Below are positions 5,169 through 20,395 of a stretch of 23,806 nt of DNA, in pieces. Source of the DNA: Escherichia coli (GTDB lineage: Bacteria; Pseudomonadota; Gammaproteobacteria; Enterobacterales; Enterobacteriaceae); NCBI GenBank assembly GCA_025544715.1, contig GCA_025544715.1_4109.5, one strand, 5' to 3'. Made by a program: the position numbers and the translations under genes. The notes under the pieces were generated by a model, which had not been told where the DNA came from, made no database searches, and was given only the letters and a program-made list of their open reading frames with translations. Position 1 is the first letter of the stretch. Each line of letters starts with the position of its first letter.

Positions 5169-5261
5169 ATATTCATTGAGAGATAGCTCACTGACCCACA
5201 GGGTGCAGAAGTGTATCTATTATATAAGTATTCAGTACTGAAAACTATTTTTAAAAAGTAC

Positions 5262-5290: not shown

Positions 5291-5301
5291 TTTTATATCG
5301 A

Positions 5302-5323
5302 GAGGGGGAAATGGTTCTCCCTG
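5302..5323 (+). other. 5' leader stem-loop (GGGGGAA / TTCTCCC)
   Basis: inverted repeat with AATGG loop; the loop ATG is the spurious ORF-track start at 5311. Confidence 0.55.
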
Positions 5324-5343
5324 GTACATTAAGGAATAAAATC

Positions 5344-5565
5344 ATGACTACAATGACTTGCATTCACGCTTCAAACCTGCTTAATGATGCGGCCTTTAAT
5401 GTTGAAACAGAATATCAATGTTATCGGGATGAAAATAAAAAAGTTTTTGTAGTTGATAATAATGGTTTCCATATTGAATTGCAATCCGGTTTCACTGGCA
5501 TTGATGGTAAATCAGTATGGGGCGTACAGGACGATAAAGGCACATATCATTTTAAACGTAATTAA
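5344..5565 (+). CDS. hypothetical protein (73 aa)
   Basis: start moved from 5311 (hairpin loop) to ATG 5344, 8 nt after AAGGA. Confidence 0.6.
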   Translation: MTTMTCIHASNLLNDAAFNVETEYQCYRDENKKVFVVDNNGFHIELQSGFTGIDGKSVWGVQDDKGTYHFKRN

Positions 5566-5568
5566 GTA

Positions 5569-5596
5569 TTGACAAAGTATATCAGTACTGTATAAT
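5569..5596 (+). promoter_or_regulatory. sigma70-type promoter (consensus)
   Basis: TTGACAAAGTAT-ATCAGTACTG-TATAATAGTTTACATCAAGG, near-identical to 2992-3033. Confidence 0.7.
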
Positions 5597-5608
5597 AGTT
5601 TACATCAA

Positions 5609-5627
5609 GGGGAGAATAGTTCTCCCC
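5609..5627 (+). other. 5' leader stem-loop (GGGGAGAA / TTCTCCCC)
   Basis: perfect 8-bp inverted repeat, loop TAG. Confidence 0.6.
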
Positions 5628-5649
5628 GATACTAAAAGGAAACAAAATT

Positions 5650-5922
5650 ATGTCTAGCTACTCCGCTACTATGATCATTAAAGATATGAACGGTAATCCT
5701 ACTTCTGCTGGTGGATCATTTGGAAACATTAACTTAGATGGTCGGTTATCAATTGAATCAGCCATCAATGCAGCGAAAGAAGTTTTTAAGAATGAATGTA
5801 CTGTAAGCAAGCTGGATTATATGGGCTTCGCTATCGAAAAAACTAATCGTTTTGTGGACTACAAAAAACCACTGATGATTGATACTAACCTGAAAGCGAA
5901 CGAAGTGGAATACTTATTATGA
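5650..5922 (+). CDS. hypothetical protein (90 aa)
   Basis: AAGGA RBS then ATG. Confidence 0.65.
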   Translation: MSSYSATMIIKDMNGNPTSAGGSFGNINLDGRLSIESAINAAKEVFKNECTVSKLDYMGFAIEKTNRFVDYKKPLMIDTNLKANEVEYLL

Positions 5923-6110
5923 CAGTTGAAGAAGTTAAAAAAGTACTGGCAGTACTACGCTATCATAATCATTGCAAGGTTAAGAATGATCCTGATTATC
6001 TTGATTCATCCCTGGAAGAGGATACACTACAAGCAATAAGCCATATGCAAAAAATGCTTAAGCGTATGACTGAAAAGAATAGACCGGACTATATCGGAAA
6101 TAAAATTTAA
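5919..6110 (+). CDS. hypothetical protein (63 aa)
   Basis: ATGA overlap with upstream stop, suggesting translational coupling. Confidence 0.55.
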   Translation: MTVEEVKKVLAVLRYHNHCKVKNDPDYLDSSLEEDTLQAISHMQKMLKRMTEKNRPDYIGNKI

Positions 6111-6117
6111 AAAGTAC

Positions 6118-6145
6118 TTGCATTGTAGTTAGATTAACGTATAAT
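6118..6145 (+). promoter_or_regulatory. sigma70-type promoter of the AAAAAGTACTTGCA class
   Basis: TTGCAT (6118-6123), 16-nt spacer, TATAAT (6140-6145). Confidence 0.6.
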
Positions 6146-6157
6146 GTTTTACATAGA

Positions 6158-6178
6158 GCGGGGGAATAGTTCTCCCGC
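6158..6178 (+). other. 5' leader stem-loop (GCGGGGGAA / TTCTCCCGC)
   Basis: 9-bp stem with one G-U pair; same hairpin repeated at 7132-7152. Confidence 0.6.
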
Positions 6179-6196
6179 CAGTCCAGGAGATACACC

Positions 6197-6463
6197 ATGA
6201 ACACTATCGAAATCACTATCAATGCTCACGTATACGACAACGTAGTACTGCAAACTACTATGACCGCTCACGATACCAGTACTTTGCGGAATACCGTTGT
6301 AAGTGCTGTATGTGCTGCAATCGGTGATGTAGCCCTGGAAAATGCAGAACACATCAACAACGGTTTCACTATGTGCAAGCGTGATAACGCAAAACATATC
6401 ATCGTAGAAGGTTACGGCGGTGTAGAATATAACCTTTATATGAAAAAAGTACTTGCATCGTAA
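6197..6463 (+). CDS. hypothetical protein (88 aa)
   Basis: CCAGGAG RBS then ATG. Confidence 0.65.
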   Translation: MNTIEITINAHVYDNVVLQTTMTAHDTSTLRNTVVSAVCAAIGDVALENAEHINNGFTMCKRDNAKHIIVEGYGGVEYNLYMKKVLAS

Positions 6464-6480
6464 TTAAAACAAAGTATAAT
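6453..6480 (+). promoter_or_regulatory. sigma70-type promoter overlapping end of upstream CDS
   Basis: AAAAAGTACTTGCAT with TTGCAT at 6453-6458, 16-nt spacer, TATAAT (6475-6480). Confidence 0.55.
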
Positions 6481-6490
6481 GTTTTGCATA

Positions 6491-6509
6491 GGGGGAGATA
6501 TCCTCCCCC
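6491..6509 (+). other. 5' leader stem-loop (GGGGGAG / CTCCCCC)
   Basis: perfect 7-bp inverted repeat, loop ATATC. Confidence 0.6.
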
Positions 6510-6528
6510 ACTAATAAGGAGTACTAAA

Positions 6529-6753
6529 ATGGCTAATCATGATGACCTGATTCGGGAAGTAGCTAACCTGGCGGCAGAAAAGAAATCATTCGATTCTATC
6601 TATAACACCGCTCACCGTGATTCAGTACTGGCATCAACGCAAGATCAAAAAGATGAACTGATCGCCACCTATCATGAAGCATGGAAGTATTACCGCCAAT
6701 GGGAGAAAGAAGAAAGTGAGTCTACCATTGACGGCCTCAATAATCTAATCTAA
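6529..6753 (+). CDS. hypothetical protein (74 aa)
   Basis: ORF-track start 6484 is a TTG upstream of the hairpin; ATG 6529 follows AAGGAG RBS. Confidence 0.65.
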   Translation: MANHDDLIREVANLAAEKKSFDSIYNTAHRDSVLASTQDQKDELIATYHEAWKYYRQWEKEESESTIDGLNNLI

Positions 6754-6771
6754 AGTTTTATTTCAGTACTA

Positions 6772-6800
6772 TTGACAATACTGGATAGTACTGATATGAT
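6772..6800 (+). promoter_or_regulatory. sigma70-type promoter
   Basis: TTGACA (6772-6777), 17-nt spacer with AGTACTG, TATGAT (6795-6800). Confidence 0.55.
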
Positions 6801-6827
6801 AACTTTACTATCTAAAGGGGAAACATA

Positions 6828-7085
6828 ATGGAACAGTTCACACAATATCGGGTAAATCCTCAAGCTATGGCCTATGTAGAAGACCATAAAACATTACCAG
6901 TACTGCAACCAGTTAAAGGTCATATCTATCGTGCAATGTCATGGAGTAACGCCCAGGATGGATATACTACCGCCGCCGTGGGTATGTACTGCGGGAATGG
7001 TGAATGGTTTGATCCTAGTAATCCGGTAGCCATTGACAGTACTGAAAAAATGAAATGGGCCGACTACATCGAAGATATTTCATAA
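6828..7085 (+). CDS. hypothetical protein (85 aa)
   Basis: AAAGGGGA RBS then ATG. Confidence 0.65.
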   Translation: MEQFTQYRVNPQAMAYVEDHKTLPVLQPVKGHIYRAMSWSNAQDGYTTAAVGMYCGNGEWFDPSNPVAIDSTEKMKWADYIEDIS

Positions 7086-7091
7086 AACTAT

Positions 7092-7119
7092 TTGACAGTA
7101 CTAACCAGTAATGTATAAT
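7092..7119 (+). promoter_or_regulatory. sigma70-type promoter
   Basis: TTGACA (7092-7097), 16-nt spacer with AGTACT, TATAAT (7114-7119), GTTTTACATAGAG downstream. Confidence 0.65.
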
Positions 7120-7131
7120 GTTTTACATAGA

Positions 7132-7152
7132 GCGGGGGAATAGTTCTCCCGC
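7132..7152 (+). other. 5' leader stem-loop (GCGGGGGAA / TTCTCCCGC)
   Basis: identical to hairpin at 6158-6178. Confidence 0.6.
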
Positions 7153-7174
7153 CAATAGTTTGGAGTAAAACATT

Positions 7175-7375
7175 ATGTCTATCGCTATCGCCCTGGTTGA
7201 AGTACTGAAAGAAGCTAAAGCCAACCTTATCGATGTACAGATTAAGGAATTGCAAAATGGTTTAATCGGCTGTACTTGTACCGCTGGTGGAGCGGCAGAC
7301 TATCGGGAATTCGAATCACTTGAATCGATGGTCCGTTATCTTACCATGATCGTAGAAGATTGGAGAATCATCTAA
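7175..7375 (+). CDS. hypothetical protein (66 aa)
   Basis: GGAG RBS then ATG. Confidence 0.6.
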   Translation: MSIAIALVEVLKEAKANLIDVQIKELQNGLIGCTCTAGGAADYREFESLESMVRYLTMIVEDWRII

Positions 7376-7393
7376 CAAAAAAGAATAAAAAAA

Positions 7394-7415
7394 GGGATTG
7401 ACTCCGGTCAGTCCC
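7394..7415 (+). terminator. terminator-like hairpin GGGATTGAC-TCCG-GTCAGTCCC
   Basis: same hairpin as 2412-2433. Confidence 0.5.
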
Positions 7416-7426
7416 TTTGCTATTAT
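7398..7426 (+). promoter_or_regulatory. promoter embedded in hairpin
   Basis: TTGACT, 17-nt spacer, TATTAT (7421-7426). Confidence 0.55.
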
Positions 7427-7538
7427 ATACGCATAGACAAAAACTAGCCCACTGGGTGCAGGAGTGTATCCAAAATATATAGTTAATAACGGTGAGTAAC
7501 TATTTGCTGGTGGAGTGAAAACTATTAATAAAAAACTA

Positions 7539-7567
7539 TTGACAAAGTATATCAGTACTGCAATAAT
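7539..7567 (+). promoter_or_regulatory. candidate sigma70-type promoter
   Basis: TTGACAAAGTATATCAGTACTG then AATAAT; weaker -10 than sibling promoter at 5569. Confidence 0.5.
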
Positions 7568-7620
7568 GTATCTCGTAGGGCGGCAATGGTGCGACGGCCC
7601 ACAAAGTTAGGAGTAACATC

Positions 7621-7953
7621 ATGTCTACATCAATCGCTATCGTTAAAGCTTTCATCCGTACCAATGTTTCTTCTGTATTCATCGACGGTCTGGATCGGGA
7701 AGTAGAATACTCAATCATTATCGCACAGACTGCAAACGGTGCTCGGTACATCCTGAATGATAGTGAAGCAAATCACTACTACTTCACTAAAGCTACTGGC
7801 TTTAAACGCATCGATGCTGACGTAGTATACGCTAAGATGAATAAGCTGGTAGACAAGATTAACGCTAAAGGTACTATAGATTTACAGTACTGGAACGAAA
7901 CCGATCCAGAATACGGATCTCACCGCTACCTGAATCCAGGAATTAAAATGTAA
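7621..7953 (+). CDS. hypothetical protein (110 aa)
   Basis: TTAGGAG RBS then ATG; GC-rich leader hairpin upstream. Confidence 0.7.
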   Translation: MSTSIAIVKAFIRTNVSSVFIDGLDREVEYSIIIAQTANGARYILNDSEANHYYFTKATGFKRIDADVVYAKMNKLVDKINAKGTIDLQYWNETDPEYGSHRYLNPGIKM

Positions 7954-7960
7954 AAAGTAC

Positions 7961-7988
7961 TTGCATAGTACTTAGAATCAAGTATAAT
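7961..7988 (+). promoter_or_regulatory. sigma70-type promoter of the AAAAAGTACTTGCA class
   Basis: about 45 bp identical to promoter at 2527-2570. Confidence 0.6.
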
Positions 7989-8000
7989 GTTTTACATAGA

Positions 8001-8022
8001 GAGGGAGAAATGGTTCTCCCTC
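8001..8022 (+). other. 5' leader stem-loop (GAGGGAGAA / TTCTCCCTC)
   Basis: perfect 9-bp inverted repeat with ATGG loop; loop ATG is the spurious ORF-track start 8010. Confidence 0.6.
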
Positions 8023-8042
8023 CTAAATTAAGGAGTTTTATC

Positions 8043-8444
8043 ATGACCTTCTCAATCAATTCCTTCGCTGACGTTTTAGTACTGGCACGGACTTTCGGTA
8101 AAGATGCACTGGAGTACGCTGTAAGTAATGGCACTATCCAACCGGAACAATGCCGCATCATTGGAAACTGCAAACGTTGGGCGGTATCCAATACTATTGC
8201 ACTGGAAAACTTCAACGATGGCAACAATGAATATTCTGTTGATGTAGTATTCGAAGCCGTTGATCTCGGCGGTATCTATAACACTAACTTGAATGATGTG
8301 CGTATCGTTCGCACGGGGTTCGGTGCTTATGATGTATCTATCCGTGAAGCTATGGACAAGGGATACATTAGCAAGGACTTACTTGCTCACATCATGCAGC
8401 TGTGGACGGAACGTAACGAAGCACGTACTATCTTAGGGCTGTAA
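8043..8444 (+). CDS. hypothetical protein (133 aa)
   Basis: start moved from 8010 to ATG 8043, which follows AAGGAG RBS. Confidence 0.65.
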   Translation: MTFSINSFADVLVLARTFGKDALEYAVSNGTIQPEQCRIIGNCKRWAVSNTIALENFNDGNNEYSVDVVFEAVDLGGIYNTNLNDVRIVRTGFGAYDVSIREAMDKGYISKDLLAHIMQLWTERNEARTILGL

Positions 8445-8468
8445 GCAATACACATCACCAAACATCAT

Positions 8469-8488
8469 AGGCCGCTCTCTAGCGGCCT
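8469..8488 (+). other. GC-rich palindrome AGGCCGCT-CTCT-AGCGGCCT
   Basis: 8-bp perfect inverted repeat in AT-rich context; no U-run, so not a classic terminator. Confidence 0.35.
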
Positions 8489-8512
8489 TAACTATATCAG
8501 GAGGGCATACAT

Positions 8513-8722
8513 ATGTTCTATACCGTATACAGCGTTCTAGGTACTATTGCAGGCGTACATGATAACGTCAATGATGCTATGCGTACAGTACTGCAACAGG
8601 TTCCACTAAAGCCTAAGACTGTTAAGCAGATGACAGCACGACTAACCAGGGCGACGGATGGCGTGGAAGTATGGCAGGACTACGGGGATACACAGATAAT
8701 CGTTAGCGTAACGAAGGATTAA
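8513..8722 (+). CDS. hypothetical protein (69 aa)
   Basis: AGGAGG RBS then ATG. Confidence 0.6.
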   Translation: MFYTVYSVLGTIAGVHDNVNDAMRTVLQQVPLKPKTVKQMTARLTRATDGVEVWQDYGDTQIIVSVTKD

Positions 8723-8750
8723 TGCGTAAAGGGATCTAGTACTGATTCAG

Positions 8751-8816
8751 AAAAAAGTCAAGGCGTTTTTAAAATTATGCGTTAAAAAAATGCATAGGTA
8801 ATCCCTTGACTTTTTT
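8751..8816 (+). other. 13-bp perfect inverted repeat flanking a 40-bp spacer; possible bidirectional terminator or operator
   Basis: AAAAAAGTCAAGG (8751-8763) and CCTTGACTTTTTT (8804-8816) are exact reverse complements; inner TATGC/GCATA pair. Confidence 0.35.
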
Positions 8817-8913
8817 GAAATAAAAGGGATTGGACTATGGCAAAATGCGTAGGGGGCTAAAGGGCGGGTAACCTTAGCGACTTCGATAAAGGGGTATTAC
8901 GAATAAAATGTTA

Positions 8914-8941
8914 TTGACTTTTTATATGAATCGTATAAAAT
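8914..8941 (+). promoter_or_regulatory. candidate promoter for the paralog array
   Basis: TTGACT (8914-8919), 16-nt spacer, TAAAAT (8936-8941). Confidence 0.5.
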
Positions 8942-8971
8942 ATGATTGATATTAATTTTAAGGGAGTCCCT

Positions 8972-9169
8972 ATGCATATTTTAACTCAAGCAGAACACCA
9001 CGAAAGACTTATCAATAACATGGCTATGATAATGTATAAGTCACATGAACGTGGTATGTCCTATAAGCGTGAATTAGTTATGGCACTATTCATTGGGACT
9101 AACTTTCAGGAAAGGTATGTCAACGATTGGATTTGGTATTTAATTGAAGATATAACGAGTAAACTATGA
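8972..9169 (+). CDS. family-1 paralog 1 (LGTNYQ-motif small protein)
   Basis: AAGGGAG RBS then ATG 8972 (ORF-track start 8942 is upstream of the RBS); C-terminal LFIGTNFQERYV...IEDITSKL. Confidence 0.65.
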   Translation: MHILTQAEHHERLINNMAMIMYKSHERGMSYKRELVMALFIGTNFQERYVNDWIWYLIEDITSKL

Positions 9170-9366
9170 AAATGCGTAAATTAACCGAAAAAGAATATCA
9201 AGCACTGTTACGTAAAAACTACACAAAGATTTATAATACAGACTCACACGTAGAAAGAATGGAGTTATACCTTTTGATTACATTGGGAACTAACTATCAG
9301 GATGCATGGGTAACGAAATATGTGGATACATTGAAAAATAAAACATTGTCCACGAGGAAACAATGA
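9166..9366 (+). CDS. family-1 paralog 2
   Basis: ATGA overlap; ITLGTNYQDAWV motif. Confidence 0.7.
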   Translation: MKMRKLTEKEYQALLRKNYTKIYNTDSHVERMELYLLITLGTNYQDAWVTKYVDTLKNKTLSTRKQ

Positions 9367-9572
9367 AAACTATAACACGAACCCAATCATTCGGACTTAT
9401 CTTGAAATACATGGACTTAATGGTGGATATCAGCAAAGACCTGCCTAAAACTGAAATTGAAGTTGCAAGAGCAGAGATCCGCATGTTGGCTGTACTGAAC
9501 ACAAACCATCAGGAAGATTATGTTGAAGAATGGATTCATTTTTTAATAGAAGATATTAAGAGTAAATTATGA
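9363..9572 (+). CDS. family-1 paralog 3
   Basis: ATGA overlap; AVLNTNHQEDYV...IEDIKSKL. Confidence 0.7.
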   Translation: MKTITRTQSFGLILKYMDLMVDISKDLPKTEIEVARAEIRMLAVLNTNHQEDYVEEWIHFLIEDIKSKL

Positions 9573-9784
9573 TTATTATAGAAAACTCATATCAATATAC
9601 TGAACGCATTGCTGCCAGGCAACTTGAAATCCTCATAATATACGAAGAGACTTCTGATTTAAACTTAGCTGAGGTATTGGAAAATGAAATACTTTTGGGT
9701 GCATTCTTGGGAACTGACTATCAGGAGTATTATGAGCAAAAGTATTTGTCATCTCTTGAGAAATACATCAGGAGCAAATTATGA
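9569..9784 (+). CDS. family-1 paralog 4
   Basis: ATGA overlap; AFLGTDYQEYY motif. Confidence 0.7.
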   Translation: MIIIENSYQYTERIAARQLEILIIYEETSDLNLAEVLENEILLGAFLGTDYQEYYEQKYLSSLEKYIRSKL

Positions 9785-9993
9785 TTTTTTTAACACCTGA
9801 AGAATATAAGAAACGTTTTAATTCTGTCCAGACTGAAATATTACTTATATACCTTTCAAATGCAGACCTTAACTTATCAAGGGCAATGGAGAAGGATTTA
9901 CTTATGGGTGCATTTTTGGATACAGACTTTCAGGAGTATTATGTAGGGAAATACTTAATTGAACTTCAGAACTACATTAAGAGTAAACTATGA
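9781..9993 (+). CDS. family-1 paralog 5
   Basis: ATGA overlap; AFLDTDFQEYYV motif. Confidence 0.7.
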   Translation: MIFLTPEEYKKRFNSVQTEILLIYLSNADLNLSRAMEKDLLMGAFLDTDFQEYYVGKYLIELQNYIKSKL

Positions 9994-10208
9994 AACATTT
10001 AAGTAATATAGAGAAGAATAAAATTATCATAGCTGCAATAAACAAATATTTTACACTTCAACAAAAAGAATGTTTATCTATAAGGGAACACAGAATAAAC
10101 ACCACCGATGTACGCATGATGGCTGTACTGGGGACTAACTTCCAAGAAGGCTATGTTCATGAGCACATCGTTGCACTCACTAATTACATAATGGACAAAT
10201 GTAAATGA
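9990..10208 (+). CDS. family-1 paralog 6
   Basis: ATGA overlap; AVLGTNFQEGYV motif. Confidence 0.7.
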   Translation: MKHLSNIEKNKIIIAAINKYFTLQQKECLSIREHRINTTDVRMMAVLGTNFQEGYVHEHIVALTNYIMDKCK

Positions 10209-10417
10209 AACGTCTTAGCAGCAGAGAATATTCTGCTATATTACATAAAGCTTTACCTGAGTTACAAAACATCGAGACGACCATCCCTGAGCCAACGCGA
10301 GGTGTACTGTTTACGGATTGTATGTTATTACACTTCATGGGAACTAATCACCAAGAATCTATAGTATCATCTCTCATCAACGCACTTAAACTTGAAATAA
10401 GAGACAAATGTAAATGA
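10205..10417 (+). CDS. family-1 paralog 7
   Basis: ATGA overlap; HFMGTNHQESIV motif. Confidence 0.7.
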   Translation: MKRLSSREYSAILHKALPELQNIETTIPEPTRGVLFTDCMLLHFMGTNHQESIVSSLINALKLEIRDKCK

Positions 10418-10671
10418 AACACTTGACAGACGATGAATATTCACTTAGAATTCGAAAGCTCACCCCAGAAGCAAGAGTAATCTACGATGACGATGCACTT
10501 TCATGGGTAGAGATGAAAGTTAAAGTTAATGAGCTATGGTTGCTGTACTTTCTGGGGACTAACTATCAAGAGAAATATTGCACCGATTACATTGAACAAC
10601 TAATGGAACTTATACAGGAAAAACTAAATGATCGAATTGTGGAAAAATATGAAAACTTTATCAAGCACTGA
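10414..10671 (+). CDS. family-1 paralog 8 with C-terminal extension
   Basis: ATGA overlap; YFLGTNYQEKY motif; usual junction stop is missing, giving a 13-aa extension overlapping the next gene. Confidence 0.65.
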   Translation: MKHLTDDEYSLRIRKLTPEARVIYDDDALSWVEMKVKVNELWLLYFLGTNYQEKYCTDYIEQLMELIQEKLNDRIVEKYENFIKH

Positions 10672-10900
10672 GTATCAAACTGCCCTATTCTCTTTACTAA
10701 ACACCCTTCGCAAGAACAATGAACTTTATCCTTCCCCTGAGAATGATGTAGTTAATGGAGACGTGCTCCTTCTTAAATTCATTGGAACTGATAAACAAGA
10801 TACCTTCACTGATCGTTATATCAATGCACTAAGAAACCTTGTAGCATATAAAACCCGCAAGGCCCAAAGAGAATGGAAGAGACAATGCGACAAAGACTAA
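10628..10900 (+). CDS. family-1 paralog 9
   Basis: KFIGTDKQDTF motif; family-like N-terminus begins at in-frame ATG 10649, so the true start may be 10649. Confidence 0.6.
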   Translation: MIELWKNMKTLSSTEYQTALFSLLNTLRKNNELYPSPENDVVNGDVLLLKFIGTDKQDTFTDRYINALRNLVAYKTRKAQREWKRQCDKD

Positions 10901-11136
10901 ATCACAAAATGTATTGTAAACTATTACAATCACTGGCACAGAAACACTATGATACAGTATCTGAAATATTACCCTATGATATCATGCGTTTAATTCATAG
11001 TGAGGCCGAGATGCTTGTACTGATGAGAGGGACTGATAAAACAGCAATAGCCAGATCGATTGAGCAATATATTGATGCACACTGCCAACACATGAGAACC
11101 GAAATCTGGAGGAAAGAGAATGAAACTCCTGAGTAA
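10873..11136 (+). CDS. family-1 paralog 10 (divergent)
   Basis: LMRGTDKTAIARSIEQYI keeps G-T-D and spacing but loses the Q; overlapping frame. Confidence 0.55.
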   Translation: MEETMRQRLNHKMYCKLLQSLAQKHYDTVSEILPYDIMRLIHSEAEMLVLMRGTDKTAIARSIEQYIDAHCQHMRTEIWRKENETPE

Positions 11137-11353
11137 TTATGAATATTATAGTCTGTTGCGAACTATACAAGCAAAAGTTTCTAGTATTTCTTTAAACAAA
11201 TCTATTGCACAAGAGGACAAATGTGTTATAATGGCTGAAATGAAGTTAGCTCTCTTCGTTGGAACAAACTATCAAAACATCTACACTGACGTATTGTTAG
11301 CCAGCCTACGCAACAAGGTGTTATCCAAAAATGAGAAAATTACAAGGTGTTGA
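11120..11353 (+). CDS. family-1 paralog 11
   Basis: MKLLSNYEYYSLLR N-terminus; LFVGTNYQNIY motif. Confidence 0.65.
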   Translation: MKLLSNYEYYSLLRTIQAKVSSISLNKSIAQEDKCVIMAEMKLALFVGTNYQNIYTDVLLASLRNKVLSKNEKITRC

Positions 11354-11549
11354 ATATATTAAGCTTCTGAAAACCTGTGCAAGCAGAAGGAGAAAGATTC
11401 AAAATGATAAAAGCATCTCTATTGACCTTAAGCACGCACTAGTAACTGAACTCTATGTAGGTGCACTCTTAGGCACAGACTATCAACAAATGTATGTAGA
11501 CATGTGGATTGAGGCTCTACTGAAAGAGGTTAAAAGTAAATGCAAATGA
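11331..11549 (+). CDS. family-1 paralog 12
   Basis: ALLGTDYQQMYV...KSKCK. Confidence 0.65.
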   Translation: MRKLQGVEYIKLLKTCASRRRKIQNDKSISIDLKHALVTELYVGALLGTDYQQMYVDMWIEALLKEVKSKCK

Positions 11550-11785
11550 TTAATTTAACTTATATTGAATATCAAAAACGTTTAAATGCATCCAGAGATA
11601 TAAGGATTCAAATATTCAATAACAAAAGATTGAAGCCTGATATCAGGAAAATCAAAATCATAGAAGCAGAGTTGTGCAACTTTTTAGGGACGAACTATCA
11701 GGCAGGTAAGGTAAAAAACTATCTTAGAGAACTCATGAATAGTATTGAAAATAAATGCAAGGATAATGAATATGAAAATGATTAA
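11540..11785 (+). CDS. family-1 paralog 13
   Basis: NFLGTNYQAGKV motif; in-frame ATG 11546 would give the usual ATGA overlap. Confidence 0.65.
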   Translation: MQMINLTYIEYQKRLNASRDIRIQIFNNKRLKPDIRKIKIIEAELCNFLGTNYQAGKVKNYLRELMNSIENKCKDNEYEND

Positions 11786-12011
11786 ATTATCTCAAGCAAA
11801 ATATAAAGAACGCCTGGTGAAAATTGCACCTGGACTTAATGAAATCCATCACGGAGAAGTCATTAAACATGGAAATAAGATGATTATGAAACTTGAGTTA
11901 AAGGTGGGTGCATTCATAGGAACAAACTATCAGGAGTATTATGTAGATGAATACATAATCGCACTTAAGAGATACATTGGAAGAAAACTATATCTACAAA
12001 CTAAAGAATAG
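11772..12011 (+). CDS. family-1 paralog 14
   Basis: ORF-track start 11745 is TTG; ATG 11772 follows AAGGA; AFIGTNYQEYYV motif. Confidence 0.6.
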   Translation: MKMIKLSQAKYKERLVKIAPGLNEIHHGEVIKHGNKMIMKLELKVGAFIGTNYQEYYVDEYIIALKRYIGRKLYLQTKE

Positions 12012-12040
12012 TATTGAAAATAAATGCGAGGATAATGAAC

Positions 12041-12304
12041 ATGAAAATGATTAATTTAAGTAAAGATGAATATACCGAGCGTATGGCAAAAATCTCAACT
12101 AAACGTAACACACTCTATCACAACCCAGAAATTCAACACAGTAAGAAAATGATTATGATGCGTGAGTTAAAGATGGGAGTATTCTTAGGAACAAACTATC
12201 AAGATACAGAAGTAAATCGCTTAATTTCGGAGTTACTAATGGAAATCAGAGGTAAGCTGTACTTTCATCAAATTACCCAACCACTGAGGTGTACTAAGAA
12301 ATGA
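12041..12304 (+). CDS. family-1 paralog 15
   Basis: ORF-track start 12014 is TTG; ATG 12041 follows GAGGA; VFLGTNYQDTEV motif. Confidence 0.6.
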   Translation: MKMINLSKDEYTERMAKISTKRNTLYHNPEIQHSKKMIMMRELKMGVFLGTNYQDTEVNRLISELLMEIRGKLYFHQITQPLRCTKK

Positions 12305-12516
12305 TCAACATCACATTGCAAGAAAGATTCATCCGAATCAACTATGCAATTACCAAATTAGATGCTACTATAGGATTCCAAAGTCTACCATATAAAACCA
12401 GATTGTTATTAGAGTGTGAAGCTAAGTTGGGTGTACTGTTAGGGACGCAACACCAACAACGATATGTGGAAATCTGGATTGACCTTTTAACCCAAAATAT
12501 ATATGAGAGAATGTAA
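12301..12516 (+). CDS. family-1 paralog 16
   Basis: ATGA overlap; VLLGTQHQQRYV motif. Confidence 0.7.
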   Translation: MINITLQERFIRINYAITKLDATIGFQSLPYKTRLLLECEAKLGVLLGTQHQQRYVEIWIDLLTQNIYERM

Positions 12517-12753
12517 ATGCAAAATGAAATGATATACTTAACGAATGAAGAATTTCAAGAGAAGATGTTAAAAACCAAAAACATTAATCTTAAGTTCGTT
12601 CCAAATCAATCAATATCTGAAGTATCTGCAAATGTATTGTTTCAGAAGCTACCATACTTTCTTGGAACTGATAAACAAGAATTTATGGTTCAAAATATGA
12701 TTGAACATCTTATGATGAGTATTAAGGAAAAAGTAAATGCAAAAACAAAATGA
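12517..12753 (+). CDS. family-1 paralog 17
   Basis: starts right after upstream stop; YFLGTDKQEFMV motif; N-terminus MQNEMIYLT shared with next gene. Confidence 0.65.
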   Translation: MQNEMIYLTNEEFQEKMLKTKNINLKFVPNQSISEVSANVLFQKLPYFLGTDKQEFMVQNMIEHLMMSIKEKVNAKTK

Positions 12754-13003
12754 AATGATATACTTAACACCTGCTGAGTTAACAGAAAGACTAGTTAAAT
12801 CCAGAAGATATACAAATCAACTTCCTCACAACCCAAACCAGACCCCAGCCGAAAGGAGTGCAGAAGTTTTATTCCAATCACTACCATACCTTCTTGGAAC
12901 TAATAGACAAGAGTATCATATCGAACGTATAATTAGATATCTTAAAATTACTATTCAGGAAAAGATACATGAACAAGAATATAAAAATCTTTACGGTCAA
13001 TGA
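12737..13003 (+). CDS. family-1 paralog 18
   Basis: YLLGTNRQEYHI motif; N-terminus MQKQNEMIYLT. Confidence 0.65.
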   Translation: MQKQNEMIYLTPAELTERLVKSRRYTNQLPHNPNQTPAERSAEVLFQSLPYLLGTNRQEYHIERIIRYLKITIQEKIHEQEYKNLYGQ

Positions 13004-13226
13004 ATATCATGATATTATAATGAAGACGAATATTGTAAATTCTAAAATTTCAAATACCAAGTTCATCCTTGAACATACATTAGAAGAACGACAATTGATA
13101 TTAGTTGAAGCAAAACTTCTTGCACTATTAGGTTCTAACTATCAAGACGAGTACATAAGAAAACTAATATACCTTTTAACTAAACATATCAGAAAAAAGA
13201 CACATGAAACACTTGACAGACGATGA
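12969..13226 (+). CDS. family-1 paralog 19
   Basis: ALLGSNYQDEYI motif. Confidence 0.65.
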   Translation: MNKNIKIFTVNEYHDIIMKTNIVNSKISNTKFILEHTLEERQLILVEAKLLALLGSNYQDEYIRKLIYLLTKHIRKKTHETLDRR

Positions 13227-13434
13227 ACATGGGCTTATAGTAATGGATGTAATCAACATCGAATACAAAAAGTTGATACGCTACCGTTGTTATGAAGATA
13301 AGCAACTAGTTCTAGCAGAACAGAAGTTGTTTCGACTCTTAAACACAAACTACCAAGCACAATACGAAGAATCGTATATGTACCTTTTGGCGAGGAAAGC
13401 AAAAAGAGATTATGAAAATTTTAAGCAAAGGTGA
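13204..13434 (+). CDS. family-1 paralog 20
   Basis: RLLNTNYQAQY motif; first 24 nt identical to paralog 8 (ATGAAACACTTGACAGACGATGAA). Confidence 0.65.
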   Translation: MKHLTDDEHGLIVMDVINIEYKKLIRYRCYEDKQLVLAEQKLFRLLNTNYQAQYEESYMYLLARKAKRDYENFKQR

Positions 13435-13639
13435 TTCAGTAATATTACTTATAGAGAGTTCAAGTCAATTCTTAAACATATCACTGTCTGATATAGATGA
13501 AGATGATAAAGAAGTACTGAGAGCAGATTTAAGAGTACTGTTACATCTCGGAACAAACCTACAAGAAAGATATGTAGAGTACTACATTGATGAACTTAAA
13601 GAATCAGTACTGAGAAAATGCAAATGCAAATGCGAATGA
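13412..13639 (+). CDS. family-1 paralog 21
   Basis: HLGTNLQERYV motif; C-terminus KCKCKCE encoded by AAATGC hexamer repeat. Confidence 0.65.
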   Translation: MKILSKGDSVILLIESSSQFLNISLSDIDEDDKEVLRADLRVLLHLGTNLQERYVEYYIDELKESVLRKCKCKCE

Positions 13640-13851
13640 TTACCGACGAAGAATACCTAACAATCATAAATGGACTGTTTTTGAAGCTCTTCGTCATTAA
13701 CACATCAGATATACCAGATATGGATAAAATTATTAAGAGAAATGAAATCTATGTTCTAGCTACCCTGGGAACTAACTATCAAGAATACGATATTAATGAT
13801 TATATTAAGACACTTAAACGAGCGATTGAACTAAAATGCCAAAACCACTAG
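13618..13851 (+). CDS. family-1 paralog 22
   Basis: ATLGTNYQEYDI motif; start may be ATG 13636 (ATGA overlap). Confidence 0.6.
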   Translation: MQMQMRMITDEEYLTIINGLFLKLFVINTSDIPDMDKIIKRNEIYVLATLGTNYQEYDINDYIKTLKRAIELKCQNH

Positions 13852-14051
13852 GAACAGCAGAATACATTGAACTCATGGGATTACACTTCTCATCCTTTCA
13901 GAAACTTATGCGAGAATCAAAGAATGATTTAGAATATACCATCAGAGGTTCAGATTTAAGAATGCTTCTCACCCTAGACACAGATTCCCAAGAGCGATTT
14001 GTCAATGAGCACATTAGAGCACTTTTAATGGAAATTCAAAGTAAACTATGA
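13836..14051 (+). CDS. family-1 paralog 23
   Basis: TLDTDSQERFV motif. Confidence 0.65.
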   Translation: MPKPLGTAEYIELMGLHFSSFQKLMRESKNDLEYTIRGSDLRMLLTLDTDSQERFVNEHIRALLMEIQSKL

Positions 14052-14263
14052 AGGTAATATCAAACCAAGAGTACTTGGCACTATTCAGAAAGAATAATCA
14101 TAAATTTATGGCACTTGATACAAGAACTGATATAGGGGAACTTGAAAAAAATCTTTTGCGTTCAGAGATGATAGTACTGACACTCTTAGGAACACAGCAT
14201 CAAGAAAGAACTGTTAATTCACACATAGAAATACTTAAGAAGCTTATACAGGAAAAGTTATGA
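14048..14263 (+). CDS. family-1 paralog 24
   Basis: ATGA overlap; TLLGTQHQERTV motif. Confidence 0.7.
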   Translation: MKVISNQEYLALFRKNNHKFMALDTRTDIGELEKNLLRSEMIVLTLLGTQHQERTVNSHIEILKKLIQEKL

Positions 14264-14481
14264 GAATCATAACACAACAAGATATGTTTAAGTTCACAAG
14301 GGATTATGCATCTGAATTTGATGCTATATTATCAAAAAGTTACAATGACCCTTATACAGAAGATGTACACTACAATGAATTATGGATGTATATACTTTTA
14401 GGTACAAATAAGCAAGAGCAAGCAGTACAGAAGTATTTGACAGCCTTAAGTACTGCTACTGCTAATGGAGTATGTGTTTAA
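14260..14481 (+). CDS. family-1 paralog 25
   Basis: ATGA overlap; ILLGTNKQEQAV motif. Confidence 0.7.
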   Translation: MRIITQQDMFKFTRDYASEFDAILSKSYNDPYTEDVHYNELWMYILLGTNKQEQAVQKYLTALSTATANGVCV

Positions 14482-14725
14482 AATGCTAGTACTGACAGAA
14501 TTAGAAATGGCAATGAGGTTTAATAGATTCAGACATTTACTTAAACCTATACAGAGGATTAAGTGCCCATTTGTAGTGAAACAGGTATTAATTTATGAGC
14601 ATAAGTTATTTGTATCATTAGGTACGAATGAACAAGAGTATTATTTGAAGTTGTACTTAATTACATTAATAGATTTAATTCACTATAAAACCAAACAAGC
14701 TAATAAAGAGAAATATGAAAACTAA
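14465..14725 (+). CDS. family-1 paralog 26
   Basis: VSLGTNEQEYYL motif; alternative start ATG 14483. Confidence 0.6.
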   Translation: MEYVFKMLVLTELEMAMRFNRFRHLLKPIQRIKCPFVVKQVLIYEHKLFVSLGTNEQEYYLKLYLITLIDLIHYKTKQANKEKYEN

Positions 14726-15059
14726 TATACAACTCAAGGTATATAAATCATTTGAACATACATATATCAAAAGTAGTCTATGTAGAGATGTAATGGATTA
14801 CAAGGGTAAGCCATTCACAATTACCTATGATTCTTATGTTAGTGATTTATATATATCATTTGTTAATTACGAAAATAAAATATACAAGCACGTTGATATT
14901 AAAGATTTAAGTACTTTATCACCAGAGGAATACTTTCAGGAATCATTAGTATGGGATTTAGAGTTTCCTATGCCATTAGTACATAAGATGATAGTACTAA
15001 TGAAAGAATCTAAACAGGAGCCTAATAGTGCTTATGAAGAACACATTATTGAGTATTAA
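14715..15059 (+). CDS. family-2 paralog (acidic-FQ motif protein, 114 aa)
   Basis: SPEEYFQESLVWDLEF motif; overlaps end of last family-1 gene. Confidence 0.65.
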   Translation: MKTNIQLKVYKSFEHTYIKSSLCRDVMDYKGKPFTITYDSYVSDLYISFVNYENKIYKHVDIKDLSTLSPEEYFQESLVWDLEFPMPLVHKMIVLMKESKQEPNSAYEEHIIEY

Positions 15060-15082
15060 GAGTACTGATAGTACAAATGTTC

Positions 15083-15111
15083 TTGACTGTACTTTTCATT
15101 ACTGATATAGT
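15083..15111 (+). promoter_or_regulatory. candidate sigma70-type promoter
   Basis: TTGACT (15083-15088), 17-nt spacer, TATAGT (15106-15111). Confidence 0.5.
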
Positions 15112-15140
15112 GCACCAACGTTAATCATAGGGTACAGATT

Positions 15141-15386
15141 ATGTTAAAATTTTTAAATTTCCTTATCGTCTTGTGTATTGTTCTTGGAATTGCACCGTTT
15201 GTATTAGCGTATCTGGATTCAGATGAAATGCAGAAGATGAATTGTACAAAGACAGGACAGAGTAGAGAAGAGACGGTTATGATACCCGTAACGGTTATTG
15301 TTAATAACATACCAATTACGAACATGATTCCTACCCTAACGACAACGTACCAGTACTCTTGTACAGATGGAGAGAGATGGAGATGA
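15141..15386 (+). CDS. small membrane or secreted protein (81 aa)
   Basis: hydrophobic N-terminus MLKFLNFLIVLCIVLGIAPFVLAYL; stop overlaps next start (ATGA). Confidence 0.5.
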   Translation: MLKFLNFLIVLCIVLGIAPFVLAYLDSDEMQKMNCTKTGQSREETVMIPVTVIVNNIPITNMIPTLTTTYQYSCTDGERWR

Positions 15387-15703
15387 AATTTAATATAGCA
15401 AAAACATCGAATGTATGTATATTTGGTTATGCAGATGAGTTAGGTGATCTTGACATTCTTTTGTACAAAAAGGATGGTGTTATGCATTTCAAGTACCAGG
15501 ATGAAGAGGCAGACAATTATCCTTTACCTAATTTAGTACAAATGCAGGAAGATGAATTATTCCAGTACAGCTTAGTATATGACATTGATATTTGCACGAT
15601 GCCAGTACTAATTAATATTCAAAAAGTGATGCTCGATGTGTTTGATAGGCTAATACAAGGCACACAAGGAAGAACCATATATGTCAATGTACAAGACAAT
15701 TAA
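15383..15703 (+). CDS. family-2 paralog (106 aa)
   Basis: ORF-track start 15359 is TTG; ATG 15383 overlaps upstream stop; QEDELFQYSLVYDIDI motif. Confidence 0.6.
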   Translation: MKFNIAKTSNVCIFGYADELGDLDILLYKKDGVMHFKYQDEEADNYPLPNLVQMQEDELFQYSLVYDIDICTMPVLINIQKVMLDVFDRLIQGTQGRTIYVNVQDN

Positions 15704-15745
15704 TCAAGAACATAAAACCTAAAATACAGGGAGTACAGAGAACGT

Positions 15746-16012
15746 ATGCAAAACACAAGGTATTATAAAAAAGTAAACCAATATTTGTACGCATCGAAGT
15801 ACAGGGATTTTTGTTTAAAGGGTGGTGATGAAGATTTTTCTTTGCGATTATCAGAATTTAATCTGTTATTTTATCTTGGTACATCGGAACAAGAAGAAAT
15901 GGCACAGAAATTTATCAAGCACCTTGAACAAAAAATTCATATGCAAATTTTGATGCTTAAGGTACATAATGAGATAAACAAATATGAATCCAACAATAGT
16001 ACAGGATCTTAA
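15746..16012 (+). CDS. family-1 paralog, dispersed copy (88 aa)
   Basis: LFYLGTSEQEEMAQKFIKHLEQKIH matches family-1 C-terminal block although located inside the family-2 zone. Confidence 0.6.
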   Translation: MQNTRYYKKVNQYLYASKYRDFCLKGGDEDFSLRLSEFNLLFYLGTSEQEEMAQKFIKHLEQKIHMQILMLKVHNEINKYESNNSTGS

Positions 16013-16373
16013 ACAAGTAATATTCCTTTTGAATACAAGAAGTTCCTTGTATACAGAGTTAAAAGATATTAATGCATTTTATCAGAATTTTGTAATTCAA
16101 GAGTTCAGTGATTTAATTACAGATGCATTATTTGAATTATCGGAAAAATACAAAGGAAAAGAGTTCAGTGTTAAGAATGTATTACGTCCTTTATCAAAGC
16201 GTATAATAAAATTAGATTGTTTCGAATTTGACAATAAAGATTTATTCGGTCATAATCTAAGTACAGCTTTATATTTTATTCCTGATTCAGACAAAAATCA
16301 TCCTATTCATTACGGATGGATTTTGTCTTACATAGAACAAGGAAAGGAGTATCCTATTAAATGGAACGATTAG
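15984..16373 (+). CDS. hypothetical protein (129 aa), possible degenerate family-2 member
   Basis: long ORF on coding strand; weak NAFYQNFVIQEF resemblance to the FQ motif. Confidence 0.5.
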   Translation: MNPTIVQDLKQVIFLLNTRSSLYTELKDINAFYQNFVIQEFSDLITDALFELSEKYKGKEFSVKNVLRPLSKRIIKLDCFEFDNKDLFGHNLSTALYFIPDSDKNHPIHYGWILSYIEQGKEYPIKWND

Positions 16374-16521
16374 GGCGATTAGATTATTACACAATTAATA
16401 CAAATTATTTGTTGAGTAATATAAAATCCGATTACAAAATATGGATAAAGAACAGAGATAGTATGTGTTATGAATTTTATTTAGATTATGCCATCAAACG
16501 ATTTTTAAGAGAAGAACATTA

Positions 16522-16722
16522 ATGCACACACCGCACAAAGAGCACACAAAGCACAAAAATACAAAAACGATAAATGTTTTAAATGATTCTTTATTGGTGA
16601 GTATAAATTTATATTATAAAATTCATTTAAATGGTGGTATTGAAAATTTTAGTTATTATTTGAGTGCAATATCGCAAGAGCATTTAATATACCAAGATCA
16701 TTTATTGCACCCGAATCCATAA
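16522..16722 (+). CDS. doubtful small ORF (66 aa)
   Basis: no convincing RBS; begins in CA-rich low-complexity DNA; kept only because it is on the coding strand of a 350-bp gap. Confidence 0.25.
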   Translation: MHTPHKEHTKHKNTKTINVLNDSLLVSINLYYKIHLNGGIENFSYYLSAISQEHLIYQDHLLHPNP

Positions 16723-16730
16723 GGCGAATT

Positions 16731-17276
16731 ATGAATGAGATAGAATTATTAGCACACAAGATTAGTACAATAATGCTTATCCTCAATAACAACCATCCTA
16801 TATCGCAGATAGATGGAATCCTGAGTCAGAGGACAGGTGGTAGTTTATATTTGACATTAACAGAGGTTATCGCAAGGAATTACATTGATATTGAAATCGA
16901 GAACAGTGATGCATCAGGAAAGGTTGATGTAGGTGCATTAATCAGTTCAAATCCAGTATCAGCATCACCATTGACACGAAATGTAAGTACAGGATTCGAA
17001 GGGTATTTGTGGTACAATACCAATGATGATTATTTTATATATCAGCATTCAAATACAAATTATGATGAAGACAAATTTAAGTTCATAGACCCTTATGATG
17101 AAGCTGAAGTATTTCAAAAATCATTAATCACAAAACCGCATGAGATGATGTATCTAATGTTATTCAGTACAATGCATTTGAATCCATTAATTAAAGGTTT
17201 AAAATTTTATATTCAATTGAATTTAGTCCATGTAGTTTATGATTTATTAATGCAAGGATATAGTTATGAAGTATAA
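16731..17276 (+). CDS. family-2 paralog, long form (181 aa)
   Basis: DEAEVFQKSLI motif; C-terminus ...VYDLLMQGYSYEV parallels C-terminus of 17887-18462. Confidence 0.65.
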   Translation: MNEIELLAHKISTIMLILNNNHPISQIDGILSQRTGGSLYLTLTEVIARNYIDIEIENSDASGKVDVGALISSNPVSASPLTRNVSTGFEGYLWYNTNDDYFIYQHSNTNYDEDKFKFIDPYDEAEVFQKSLITKPHEMMYLMLFSTMHLNPLIKGLKFYIQLNLVHVVYDLLMQGYSYEV

Positions 17277-17577
17277 AATGCTTTATACATTAACATTAAT
17301 ATATGTAGAATTAGAATCCGATTCAGATGCATGGAATTTAGTTAAAGAGGTCGATACAAATCAATGGTACATGGCAAATTTAGACGCACAGGTTGTTACG
17401 GATTATTTTATAGATTTTAATACATTATCTGAAGAAGAATTTTTCCAAATGCAATTGGTGGTTGACATGTACGGGCATGACATGGTAACATTACGAAATA
17501 TACAGAAAGCCGTTAATGAAATCCAAAGCAAGAAAGATTATGAGGTAGGAGCGTATTATGACATCGACGTACAATGA
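17266..17577 (+). CDS. family-2 paralog (103 aa)
   Basis: LSEEEFFQMQLVVD motif; close paralog of next gene. Confidence 0.7.
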   Translation: MKYKMLYTLTLIYVELESDSDAWNLVKEVDTNQWYMANLDAQVVTDYFIDFNTLSEEEFFQMQLVVDMYGHDMVTLRNIQKAVNEIQSKKDYEVGAYYDIDVQ

Positions 17578-17588
17578 GTACAATAGTT

Positions 17589-17906
17589 ATGAAGTATAAA
17601 ATGCTTAATACAGTATCAGGGATATATGTAGAATTAGAATCCGATTATTCAGATGGATGGAATTTTATTAAACGCCACGATATAAATACATGGTACATGG
17701 CACATTTGGATAATGACGTAATAATAGATAATTTTGTCGATTTTAATACATTATCAGAAGAAGAATTTTTCCAAATGCAATTTGTGCTTGATACAAATGG
17801 ATTTGATTTGCTATTATTAAGGAATATTCAGAAAGCGGTTAATGAATTCATAATCCAAAATAATTCAGGTAAAATGGGGATGTTCCATGATCTGGAAGTA
17901 CAATGA
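17589..17906 (+). CDS. family-2 paralog (105 aa)
   Basis: start placed at ATG 17589, homologous to the start of 17266; LSEEEFFQMQFVLD motif. Confidence 0.65.
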   Translation: MKYKMLNTVSGIYVELESDYSDGWNFIKRHDINTWYMAHLDNDVIIDNFVDFNTLSEEEFFQMQFVLDTNGFDLLLLRNIQKAVNEFIIQNNSGKMGMFHDLEVQ

Positions 17907-18462
17907 AAGCAACGATTACAATGAAATTCAGTACACCTACGCTAATGCAATCCTTATGGGACAAAAATTAGCTTGTATTGTTGCAGCCTTATATAATGCA
18001 CAGAAAGATTACAAGCGTCATATCCACAAATGTATTGGTATTATTCCATCTAAGTACAATACATATATTGCGTGCACGAGTCATTTTGATAAACGATTCA
18101 ATACACCTGATACCCCAAATGCCAGTAGTGTTATTGGTCTTTTGGATTTCGCACCTGGTGCTGTTATTGGAAAGAATGATTTAGAGTACGCATGGTATAA
18201 TAAAAATTCCCCATTAGTAATGGTAAAATATGATACAGAAACGAACAAAACAATAGAGTACAATACATATAAATCAGAGGAAGAATTTTTCCAAGGTTCA
18301 TTGCTTGTGCCAGTGCGTTTGTTGTTTTATAATGTCCTTATTAGTACAGTACACAATAGTCCATTACACAAGAATCACAAAATTAATTTCAATTTTTGTG
18401 CTTATGCGATTGATGGTGTGTATGAGTGTTTAATGGAGGTATTGAGTTATGAAGCTGAATAA
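17887..18462 (+). CDS. family-2 paralog, long form (191 aa)
   Basis: SEEEFFQGSLLV motif; C-terminus ...VYECLMEVLSYEAE. Confidence 0.65.
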   Translation: MIWKYNESNDYNEIQYTYANAILMGQKLACIVAALYNAQKDYKRHIHKCIGIIPSKYNTYIACTSHFDKRFNTPDTPNASSVIGLLDFAPGAVIGKNDLEYAWYNKNSPLVMVKYDTETNKTIEYNTYKSEEEFFQGSLLVPVRLLFYNVLISTVHNSPLHKNHKINFNFCAYAIDGVYECLMEVLSYEAE

Positions 18463-20394: not shown

Positions 20395-20395
20395 C

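Follow-up and report, generated by a model that had tools for sequence, protein, structure and literature searches.

Why would a phage carry more than two dozen diverged copies of one small gene in an unbroken row? The question is raised by a stretch of DNA of 23,806 nucleotides (nt) from an Escherichia coli assembly (GCA_025544715.1, contig GCA_025544715.1_4109.5), the whole of which is here called the window. An earlier note, made from the sequence alone, described in it a tandem array of 26 paralogous small genes sharing an LGTNYQ motif at 8942-14725 on the plus strand, and a 27th copy at 15746-16012. The Asteriusvirus jumbo coliphages SHEFM2K, phAPEC6, G17, PBECO4 and 121Q are 82-93% identical to the window over most of its length, and the window is Asteriusvirus DNA of the PBECO4/121Q group. 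The array consists of 25 clear paralogues and one divergent member, m10 (genes are numbered m01 to m27 in order). Altogether, our results suggest a family of small helical proteins with a conserved core and a highly variable surface, for which we tentatively propose a role in binding host or competitor proteins.

Results

The array is one contiguous and highly diverged gene family

The 26 successive ORFs (open reading frames) follow each other without intergenic space, as had been claimed, and the 27th does lie apart, with a leave-one-out hidden Markov model (HMM) score of 26.7 bits. Over 99.9% of the array, the plus strand is free of stop codons in one frame or other; the corresponding share is 11% for the minus strand, the same as the mean of 200 shuffles. 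Start-to-start distances have a median of 212 base pairs (bp) and a mean of 221 bp, compared with the spacing of about 213 bp given before. Two details of the earlier description need revision. The longest ORFs have 66-96 amino acids (aa) rather than 65-88 aa, and several true starts are probably internal ATGs. Moreover, the 4-bp ATGA overlaps reported for most junctions are in the minority: with longest-ORF starts they occur at only 10 of 25 junctions, rising to about 12-13 if alternative starts are used, while the remaining junctions abut or overlap by 10-44 nt. No Shine-Dalgarno sequence precedes about half of the internal starts, consistent with translational coupling over the overlaps.

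That the shared motif goes beyond composition is supported by leave-one-out HMM scores of 26.7-74.7 bits for 26 of the 27 proteins, as compared with at most 11.2 bits for 1080 shuffled controls. BLASTP joins 25 members and the HMM all 27, in agreement with a one-family array. The motifs are as first described, with T, Q and one L conserved in at least 90% of members and both G-T-[ND]-x-Q-[ED] and [ST]-x-x-E-Y clear; mean pairwise protein identity among members is 24%. An HMM search for further members hidden in any frame of the window found none, and a search of the window for Rfam RNA families was also negative. The members, with leave-one-out scores in bits, are as follows.

8942-9169, plus strand: m01, 75 aa as longest ORF, probably 65 aa from 8972; 43.9 bits
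8960-8966, plus strand: Shine-Dalgarno sequence AAGGGAG of m01, preceding the probable true start ATG 8972
9166-9366, plus strand: m02, 66 aa; 47.9 bits
9363-9572, plus strand: m03, 69 aa; 56.1 bits
9569-9784, plus strand: m04, 71 aa; 51.2 bits; most acidic member, isoelectric point (pI) 4.3
9781-9993, plus strand: m05, 70 aa; 59.1 bits
9990-10208, plus strand: m06, 72 aa; 57.6 bits
10205-10417, plus strand: m07, 70 aa; 57.4 bits
10414-10671, plus strand: m08, 85 aa; 74.7 bits
10628-10900, plus strand: m09, 90 aa by longest ORF; 42.0 bits
10873-11136, plus strand: m10, 87 aa; divergent positional member; 9 bits
11120-11353, plus strand: m11, 77 aa; 51.6 bits
11331-11549, plus strand: m12, 72 aa; 67.6 bits; member modeled
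11540-11785, plus strand: m13, 81 aa; 59.1 bits
11745-12011, plus strand: m14, longest ORF from TTG, probable start ATG 11772 or 11778; 72.7 bits
12014-12304, plus strand: m15, longest ORF from TTG, probable start among the ATGs at 12035-12047; 71.9 bits
12301-12516, plus strand: m16, 71 aa; 44.9 bits
12517-12753, plus strand: m17, 78 aa; 50.8 bits
12737-13003, plus strand: m18, 88 aa; 39.3 bits
12969-13226, plus strand: m19, 85 aa; 40.8 bits
13204-13434, plus strand: m20, 76 aa; 32.3 bits
13412-13639, plus strand: m21, 75 aa; 61.3 bits
13618-13851, plus strand: m22, 77 aa; 62.0 bits
13836-14051, plus strand: m23, 71 aa; 43.3 bits
14048-14263, plus strand: m24, 71 aa; 61.9 bits
14260-14481, plus strand: m25, 73 aa; 46.1 bits
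14465-14725, plus strand: m26, 86 aa; 37.2 bits; end of the contiguous array
15746-16012, plus strand: m27, 88 aa; 26.7 bits; detached, inside a second, unrelated paralogue array

For m01, a database homologue (P0055) is annotated at 65 aa.

A predicted four-helix scaffold with a hypervariable surface

Of the 27 members, 26 match PHROG 4148 (phrog_4148; best expect value (E) 1.3e-26) and 13 also match phrog_28039, both of which are annotated as function unknown. The proteins of 121Q, PBECO4, phAPEC6, G17 and others in PHROG 4148 and PHROG 28039 are thus the same family as the array; unlike the present analysis, the PHROG entry carries no function, structure or array description. An exhaustive profile search of 1.84 billion representative proteins returned only 92 clusters, all of 52-122 residues and none multidomain. 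The named members all belong either to Asteriusvirus phages of Escherichia and Salmonella or to Klebsiella jumbo phages of the RaK2-like kind. The family had no match in Pfam, in PDB sequences searched by profile (nothing below E = 0.46) or in PADLOC.

With the 27 window paralogues as alignment, AlphaFold modeled m12 with very high confidence as a four-helix domain (predicted local distance difference test (pLDDT) 97.7, predicted template modeling score (pTM) 0.83), and fold searches with this model found no structural relative outside these phages. When the alignment is mapped onto the model, 18 positions fall in the conserved hydrophobic core, 11 are conserved and polar, and 41 of 70 (~60%) are hypervariable, with a mean entropy of 3.24 bits. 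Besides E40 and K70, the conserved polar set comprises two helix-capping boxes of the S/T-x-x-E type, one being L-[ST]-x-x-E-Y and the other G-T-[ND]-x-Q-[ED]. Because the conserved positions map to the core and the capping boxes, the model indicates that the 'LGTNYQ' motif is a fold-defining loop and helix cap with no obvious active site. The alignment likewise contains no conserved Cys/His/Ser/Asp pattern hinting at catalysis or metal binding. Members are of ~8 kDa each, vary in pI from 4.3 to 9.9 and in net charge from -7 to +9, and in none of them is a hydrophobic segment long enough to span a membrane; they are soluble single-domain proteins.

The divergent m10 has a 6-residue insertion within the G-T-D loop, and its model (pLDDT 77, three long helices) is weaker than and different from the family model. 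Its orthologues are 83-92% identical, with the proportion of non-synonymous differences (pN) well below that of synonymous differences (pS), indicating a conserved gene. Since its SHEFM2K orthologue is an array gene annotated without a PHROG, m10 probably accounts for the single PHROG 4148 miss.

We also observed a protein of 154 aa (P0001), encoded on an ENA metagenome contig of 3149 bp, that is an in-frame fusion of an m19-like and an m20-like unit and represents either a tolerated natural fusion of adjacent units or an assembly error. A MAFFT alignment of the members to P0001 was unusable, with members divided between both halves.

Array genes are constrained, including at their variable surfaces

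Positional orthologues in SHEFM2K, 121Q, PBECO4 and ECO103 have a pooled ratio of non-synonymous to synonymous substitution rates (dN/dS) of 0.33-0.39 (about 0.34), from which the array genes are clearly under purifying selection and appear to be translated. The upstream single-copy genes have values of 0.13-0.14, making the array ~2.5 times more relaxed; the downstream paralogous genes, at 0.30-0.36, are similar to the array. By structural class, orthologue dN/dS is 0.19 in the core, 0.22 at conserved polar positions and 0.46 at variable surface positions. These class-wise values, mapped through the window alignment, replaced a per-column dN/dS (hmmalign, 204 members) that was blurred by one-residue register shifts. 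The value of 0.46 shows that each paralogue's own surface is also constrained between phages, which argues for a specific role of each member and against junk DNA. Among the orthologues there was no pooled signal of positive selection.

Old duplications and a repertoire with almost no redundancy

For the comparison with related phages that the earlier note had called for, relatives were taken from GenBank phage records; a search of IMG/VR with the upstream gene yielded 121Q alone. Locus and strand of the array are constant in all Asteriusvirus genomes examined, while the number of contiguous units ranges from ~17 to 29 among relatives: 26 in the window, 27 in SHEFM2K, ECO103 and TH47, 23 in 121Q, 29 in PBECO4, ~20 in A4 and ~17 in JNE01. 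Frame-disrupting variation in relatives, which would have spoken against translation of the units, is not the rule, in that most copies are intact ORFs outside the poor-quality CMSTMSU record. Full-length ORFs account for 27 of 28 HMM matches in the window. Each relative has 16-30 of them, and their share is smallest in JNE01, which is divergent.

When the 204 full-length members of eight genomes were clustered at ≥62% identity, they formed 70 types, only one of which is present twice within one genome. JNE01 has just 2 of its 16 types in common with other genomes, and m07 has no orthologue in the seven relatives clustered (identity at most 40%).

DNA identity between units is at most about 74-77%; the best pair, m14/m15, is 74% identical over a 226-nt repeat at 269-bp spacing. 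Because this identity is low and mean protein identity is 24%, the duplications are ancient and the amplification is not recent. A trace of the process is preserved at the m14/m15 junction:

11959-12051, plus strand: relic of the m13 C-terminal tail (…NSIENKCEDNEHEND); HMM 17 bits, repeat D1

Here, the 3' tail of m13 (NSIENKCKDNEYEND and stop) was copied after m14 at ~93% identity and out of frame, and the C-terminus of m14 is chimeric. The relic, which is also found in SHEFM2K, PBECO4 and ECO103, is a direct footprint of unequal crossing-over, the process by which the array grew long ago. The scenario of repeated unequal crossing-over with diversification put forward in the earlier note is thus supported by the relic, the copy-number variation and the 24% mean identity, with the qualifications that the duplications are old and that the 121Q array is already in the literature.

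A RaK2-like genome contains at least 13 members as singles, pairs and triplets amid three other paralogue families. The family is thus older than Asteriusvirus, in which it came to form one contiguous block.

Three further observations concern the layout of the family. In the CMSTMSU record (L008 7730-15965), the array is broken into 26 partial and 15 full HMM matches, and at one place two or three units appear to be fused. This record bears the flag UNVERIFIED_ORG and has unusually short gene annotations; sequencing frameshift errors, not biology, are the most likely source of the shattering. The detached site has two adjacent members in SHEFM2K, 121Q, PBECO4, TH47 and ECO103 (L001 16549-17024) and only m27 in the window, where 43 bp separate m27 from the preceding gene (15703-15746). 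Finally, 121Q and PBECO4 have a further member pair deep in the second array (L002 31051-31441; L003 32260-32650), ~13 kb past the array and outside the window.

The array begins at an inferred terminal-repeat boundary

The phage fEgEco12 has direct terminal repeats of 20,993 bp, confirmed by PhageTerm and restriction mapping (PMC13070987). In its record, the last 200 bases are exactly positions 20794-20993 and the first array gene is at 21,091. This boundary aligns to the window between 8874 and 8875 (GGGCGGGTAACCT to the left, TAGCGACTTCG to the right), and we infer that window positions 1-8874 belong to the left terminal repeat and that the array is the first thing beyond it, 98 bp past the inner edge. 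The lower guanine-cytosine (GC) content of the array, which had been estimated by eye, is confirmed at 0.331 versus 0.388 in 1-8874, and the step, which coincides with the terminal-repeat boundary placed by homology, is thereby explained. Two features occupy the junction:

8806-8941, plus strand: conserved non-coding spacer with the inferred repeat boundary, 95-100% identical in most relatives
8914-8941, plus strand: sigma-70-like promoter candidate TTGACT-16-TAAAAT, 10/12 consensus match only

The candidate promoter lies 31 bp upstream of ATG 8972, a distance that fits a leader including the strong Shine-Dalgarno sequence.

Window positions 1-8874 contain ten plus-strand sites that match the sigma-70 consensus at ≥11/12, all of them intergenic, where shuffles average 0.27; the minus strand of the same region has none. 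Six are perfect (TTGACA-16/17-TATAAT; 1681, 2652, 2992, 3423, 5569 and 7092) and four match at 11/12 (52, 643, 6772 and 7539). Together, these sites give the repeat part the signature of an early region read by the RNA polymerase of the host, of the kind known from T5, SPO1 and related phages. Inside the array, there are three 11/12 sites, at 10423, 12904 and 13213.

The first 34 nt of m08 and m20 (10414-10447 and 13204-13237; ATGAAACACTTGACAGACGATGAA...) are 88% identical in genes that have otherwise diverged, and each shared start holds an 11/12 TTGACA-17-TA[GT]A[AG]T site; it could be an internal promoter or the product of gene conversion. The GC-rich spacer at 8726-8941 is nearly invariant in most relatives and may hold a packaging or terminus signal. 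Within the repeat part, a hairpin element recurs at 2409-2436, 7391-7418 and 5136-5157 (AAAGGGATTGACTCCGGTCAGTCCCTTT followed by GCTATTATAT), with an embedded TTGACT -35-like hexamer and then a TG-extended -10-like TATTAT; between early genes, it could act as terminator and promoter in one. Another GC-rich hairpin with an 8-bp stem (8469-8488; AGGCCGCTCTCTAGCGGCCT) directly follows the ORF at 8010-8444, with no plus-strand T-run behind it.

A second, unrelated paralogue family follows the array

From 14715 to 22633 and beyond, the window contains a second paralogue family of 103-207 aa with the motif EE[YF]FQxSLV (for example, 14715-15059, 15359-15703, 16731-17276, 17266-17577, 17574-17906 and 17887-18462, up to 22010-22633). 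It has at least 34 members at the 121Q locus and no Pfam match reaching the curated cut-off. Comparisons with hhalign and hmmsearch found no relation between this family and the array family.

Discussion

We favor, at somewhat less than even chances, a model whereby the array is an early operon whose diversified products bind other proteins, without enzymatic activity, in the service of host takeover or counter-defense. In this model, host RNA polymerase would transcribe the array early in infection into one polycistronic mRNA or a small number of them, starting from the candidate site at 8914-8941, by read-through or from internal sites, and translation would be coupled across the gene overlaps. 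The products would form a battery of binders, each surface recognizing a different and probably polymorphic target of the host or of a competitor, and their purpose would be to take over the host or to neutralize defense or toxin proteins. The virion proteome of phAPEC6 contains no 7-10 kDa protein and none between gp347 and gp549 (PMC7247149 Table 1), and no family member was detected in it (PMC7247149), in line with a family that is non-virion.

Several points weigh against this model. The binding or counter-defense role is drawn from analogy and from the conservation pattern, and the terminal-repeat boundary is transferred by homology from fEgEco12. The promoter candidate at the head of the array matches the consensus at only 10/12 positions, and promoter-like sites at the 9/12 level are not enriched in 7500-17000 (47 found versus 46.6 expected), so that matches stand out only from 11/12 upward. 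PADLOC gave only chance-level matches of single members, and neither there nor in the PDB search was there a tie to a defense or anti-defense protein. The pooled surface dN/dS of 0.46 is below 1, and orthologues thus bear no mark of an arms race still in progress. Finally, mass spectrometry of virions easily overlooks small proteins.

An extended version of the model, which we regard as unlikely, is that one rigid four-helix scaffold with hypervariable surfaces would provide 17-29 non-redundant specificities per phage, drawn from a pan-repertoire of ~90 or more types reshuffled by unequal crossing-over, and would, as a broad-spectrum library against host defenses, neutralize diverse, strain-variable defense or toxin proteins of Enterobacteriaceae early in infection, thereby contributing to host range.

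Alternatively, the array proteins could work within the phage's own machinery, assisting another multi-copy phage component as its partners, adaptors or chaperones, which we consider unlikely but worth serious attention. Candidate components are the larger paralogues of the neighboring array (at least 34, of 104-207 aa, EE[YF]FQxSLV) or the many fiber proteins of these 'hairy' phages. The second large family begins directly after the array and encloses the detached m27, the two families have roughly comparable copy numbers, and in RaK2-like Klebsiella phages one to three members at a time are interleaved with genes of three other paralogue families. However, Asteriusvirus keeps the two families segregated and not paired gene by gene, HMM-HMM comparison finds them unrelated, and the absence of members from the virion proteome also argues against such a role. 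It is harder still to see the array as largely dispensable filler of weak residual function, with duplicates tolerated or favored by head-full packaging in a large capsid. Hua et al. 2017 (mBio) proposed a capsid-size 'ratchet' in which tandem duplication is a route of jumbo-genome growth, citing an array in 121Q (PMC5646251), and an array dN/dS of 0.34, ~2.5 times that of the upstream genes, as well as a copy number that varies from ~17 to 29 without obvious harm, would fit this proposal. Yet in good genomes most HMM matches are full-length ORFs, dN/dS stays well under 1, variable positions included, the units are old (≤77% DNA identity) and still intact, and redundancy within a genome is almost absent, which is not expected of neutral duplication.

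We give very little credence to a third alternative, in which the proteins would bind DNA, as transcription factors or as nucleoid-associated proteins, and L-G-T-N-x-Q would be a helix-turn-helix-like element. The pattern L-G-[TS]-x-x-Q-x-x-[VI] is presumably similar to the turn of helix-turn-helix proteins, for instance LGVYQSAINKAI of lambda Cro, which is a lead only, and single members have weak Pfam matches to SarA/Rot and PucR (E about 0.05). The helix-turn-helix reading of LGTNYQ was dropped after the structure model and the fold searches, in which the tri-helical fold was not found, and a net charge that varies between -7 and +9 speaks against a shared nucleic-acid-binding role. A precedent for such a role is the zinc-ribbon expansion of phage G, whose members are proposed transcription factors (PMC7824862).

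The existence of the array is already visible in published genomes, and it belongs to the lineage-specific tandem expansions in jumbo phages. A large tandem array in 121Q was noted in one sentence and read as tandem duplication (Hua et al. 2017, mBio, PMC5646251). The sentence does not name the genes and, because 121Q carries two large families in this region (~26 and at least 34 members), may mean either; unlike its wording, the members here are not 'very similar' (mean identity 24%), and that study gave no structure, selection or repertoire analysis. In the literature, we found no functional or transcriptomic study of the array genes, and none on their fold, selection, repertoire or position. 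In Bacillus phage G, a lineage-specific zinc-ribbon family has expanded to ~35 copies proposed to be DNA-binding transcription factors (Iyer et al. 2021, PMC7824862). In both cases, a single family of small proteins has expanded very strongly in a jumbo phage. They differ in phage lineage, in fold (a zinc ribbon there, an all-helical domain without conserved Cys/His here) and in the DNA-binding role proposed there, which is unsupported by the evidence here.

The SPO1 host-takeover module and the pre-early genes of T5/BF23 are groups of about two dozen small, mostly uncharacterized genes at a genome end, with strong host-type early promoters and directed at host shut-off and restriction evasion (bioRxiv 10.1101/569657, PMC10644984). 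For comparison, the terminal-repeat part of the window, which adjoins the array, has six perfect sigma-70 promoters, and the head of the array only the 10/12 candidate; the SPO1 and T5 modules consist of unrelated genes inside the repeat, whereas here one paralogous family starts 98 bp outside the inferred repeat.

Among eukaryotic viruses, the MGF110/360/505 multigene families of African swine fever virus and the host-range families of poxviruses are tandem paralogues near genome ends that vary in copy number between isolates and are implicated in host range and immune evasion. The parallel is no more than an analogy, the viruses and folds being unrelated to those here. Poxvirus gene 'accordions', moreover, are recent and near-identical copies, whereas the array units are old; of the two features of an accordion, a difference in copy number between isolates is seen here and near-identity of copies is not.

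More than 80% of jumbo-phage genes have no known function, and the array makes up ~4-5% of the genes of an Asteriusvirus. Its position at the terminal-repeat boundary beside perfect sigma-70 promoters gives a first sketch of the early region for the genus. The question of function can now be framed in testable terms, namely early expression, strain-specific loss of plating upon deletion, and a separate target for every paralogue. Should the members prove to be diversified inhibitors, the array would be a compact source of new anti-defense or host-takeover proteins on one scaffold. It would also show in nature how a phage repertoire evolves, and might help to determine the host range of phages now proposed for therapy.

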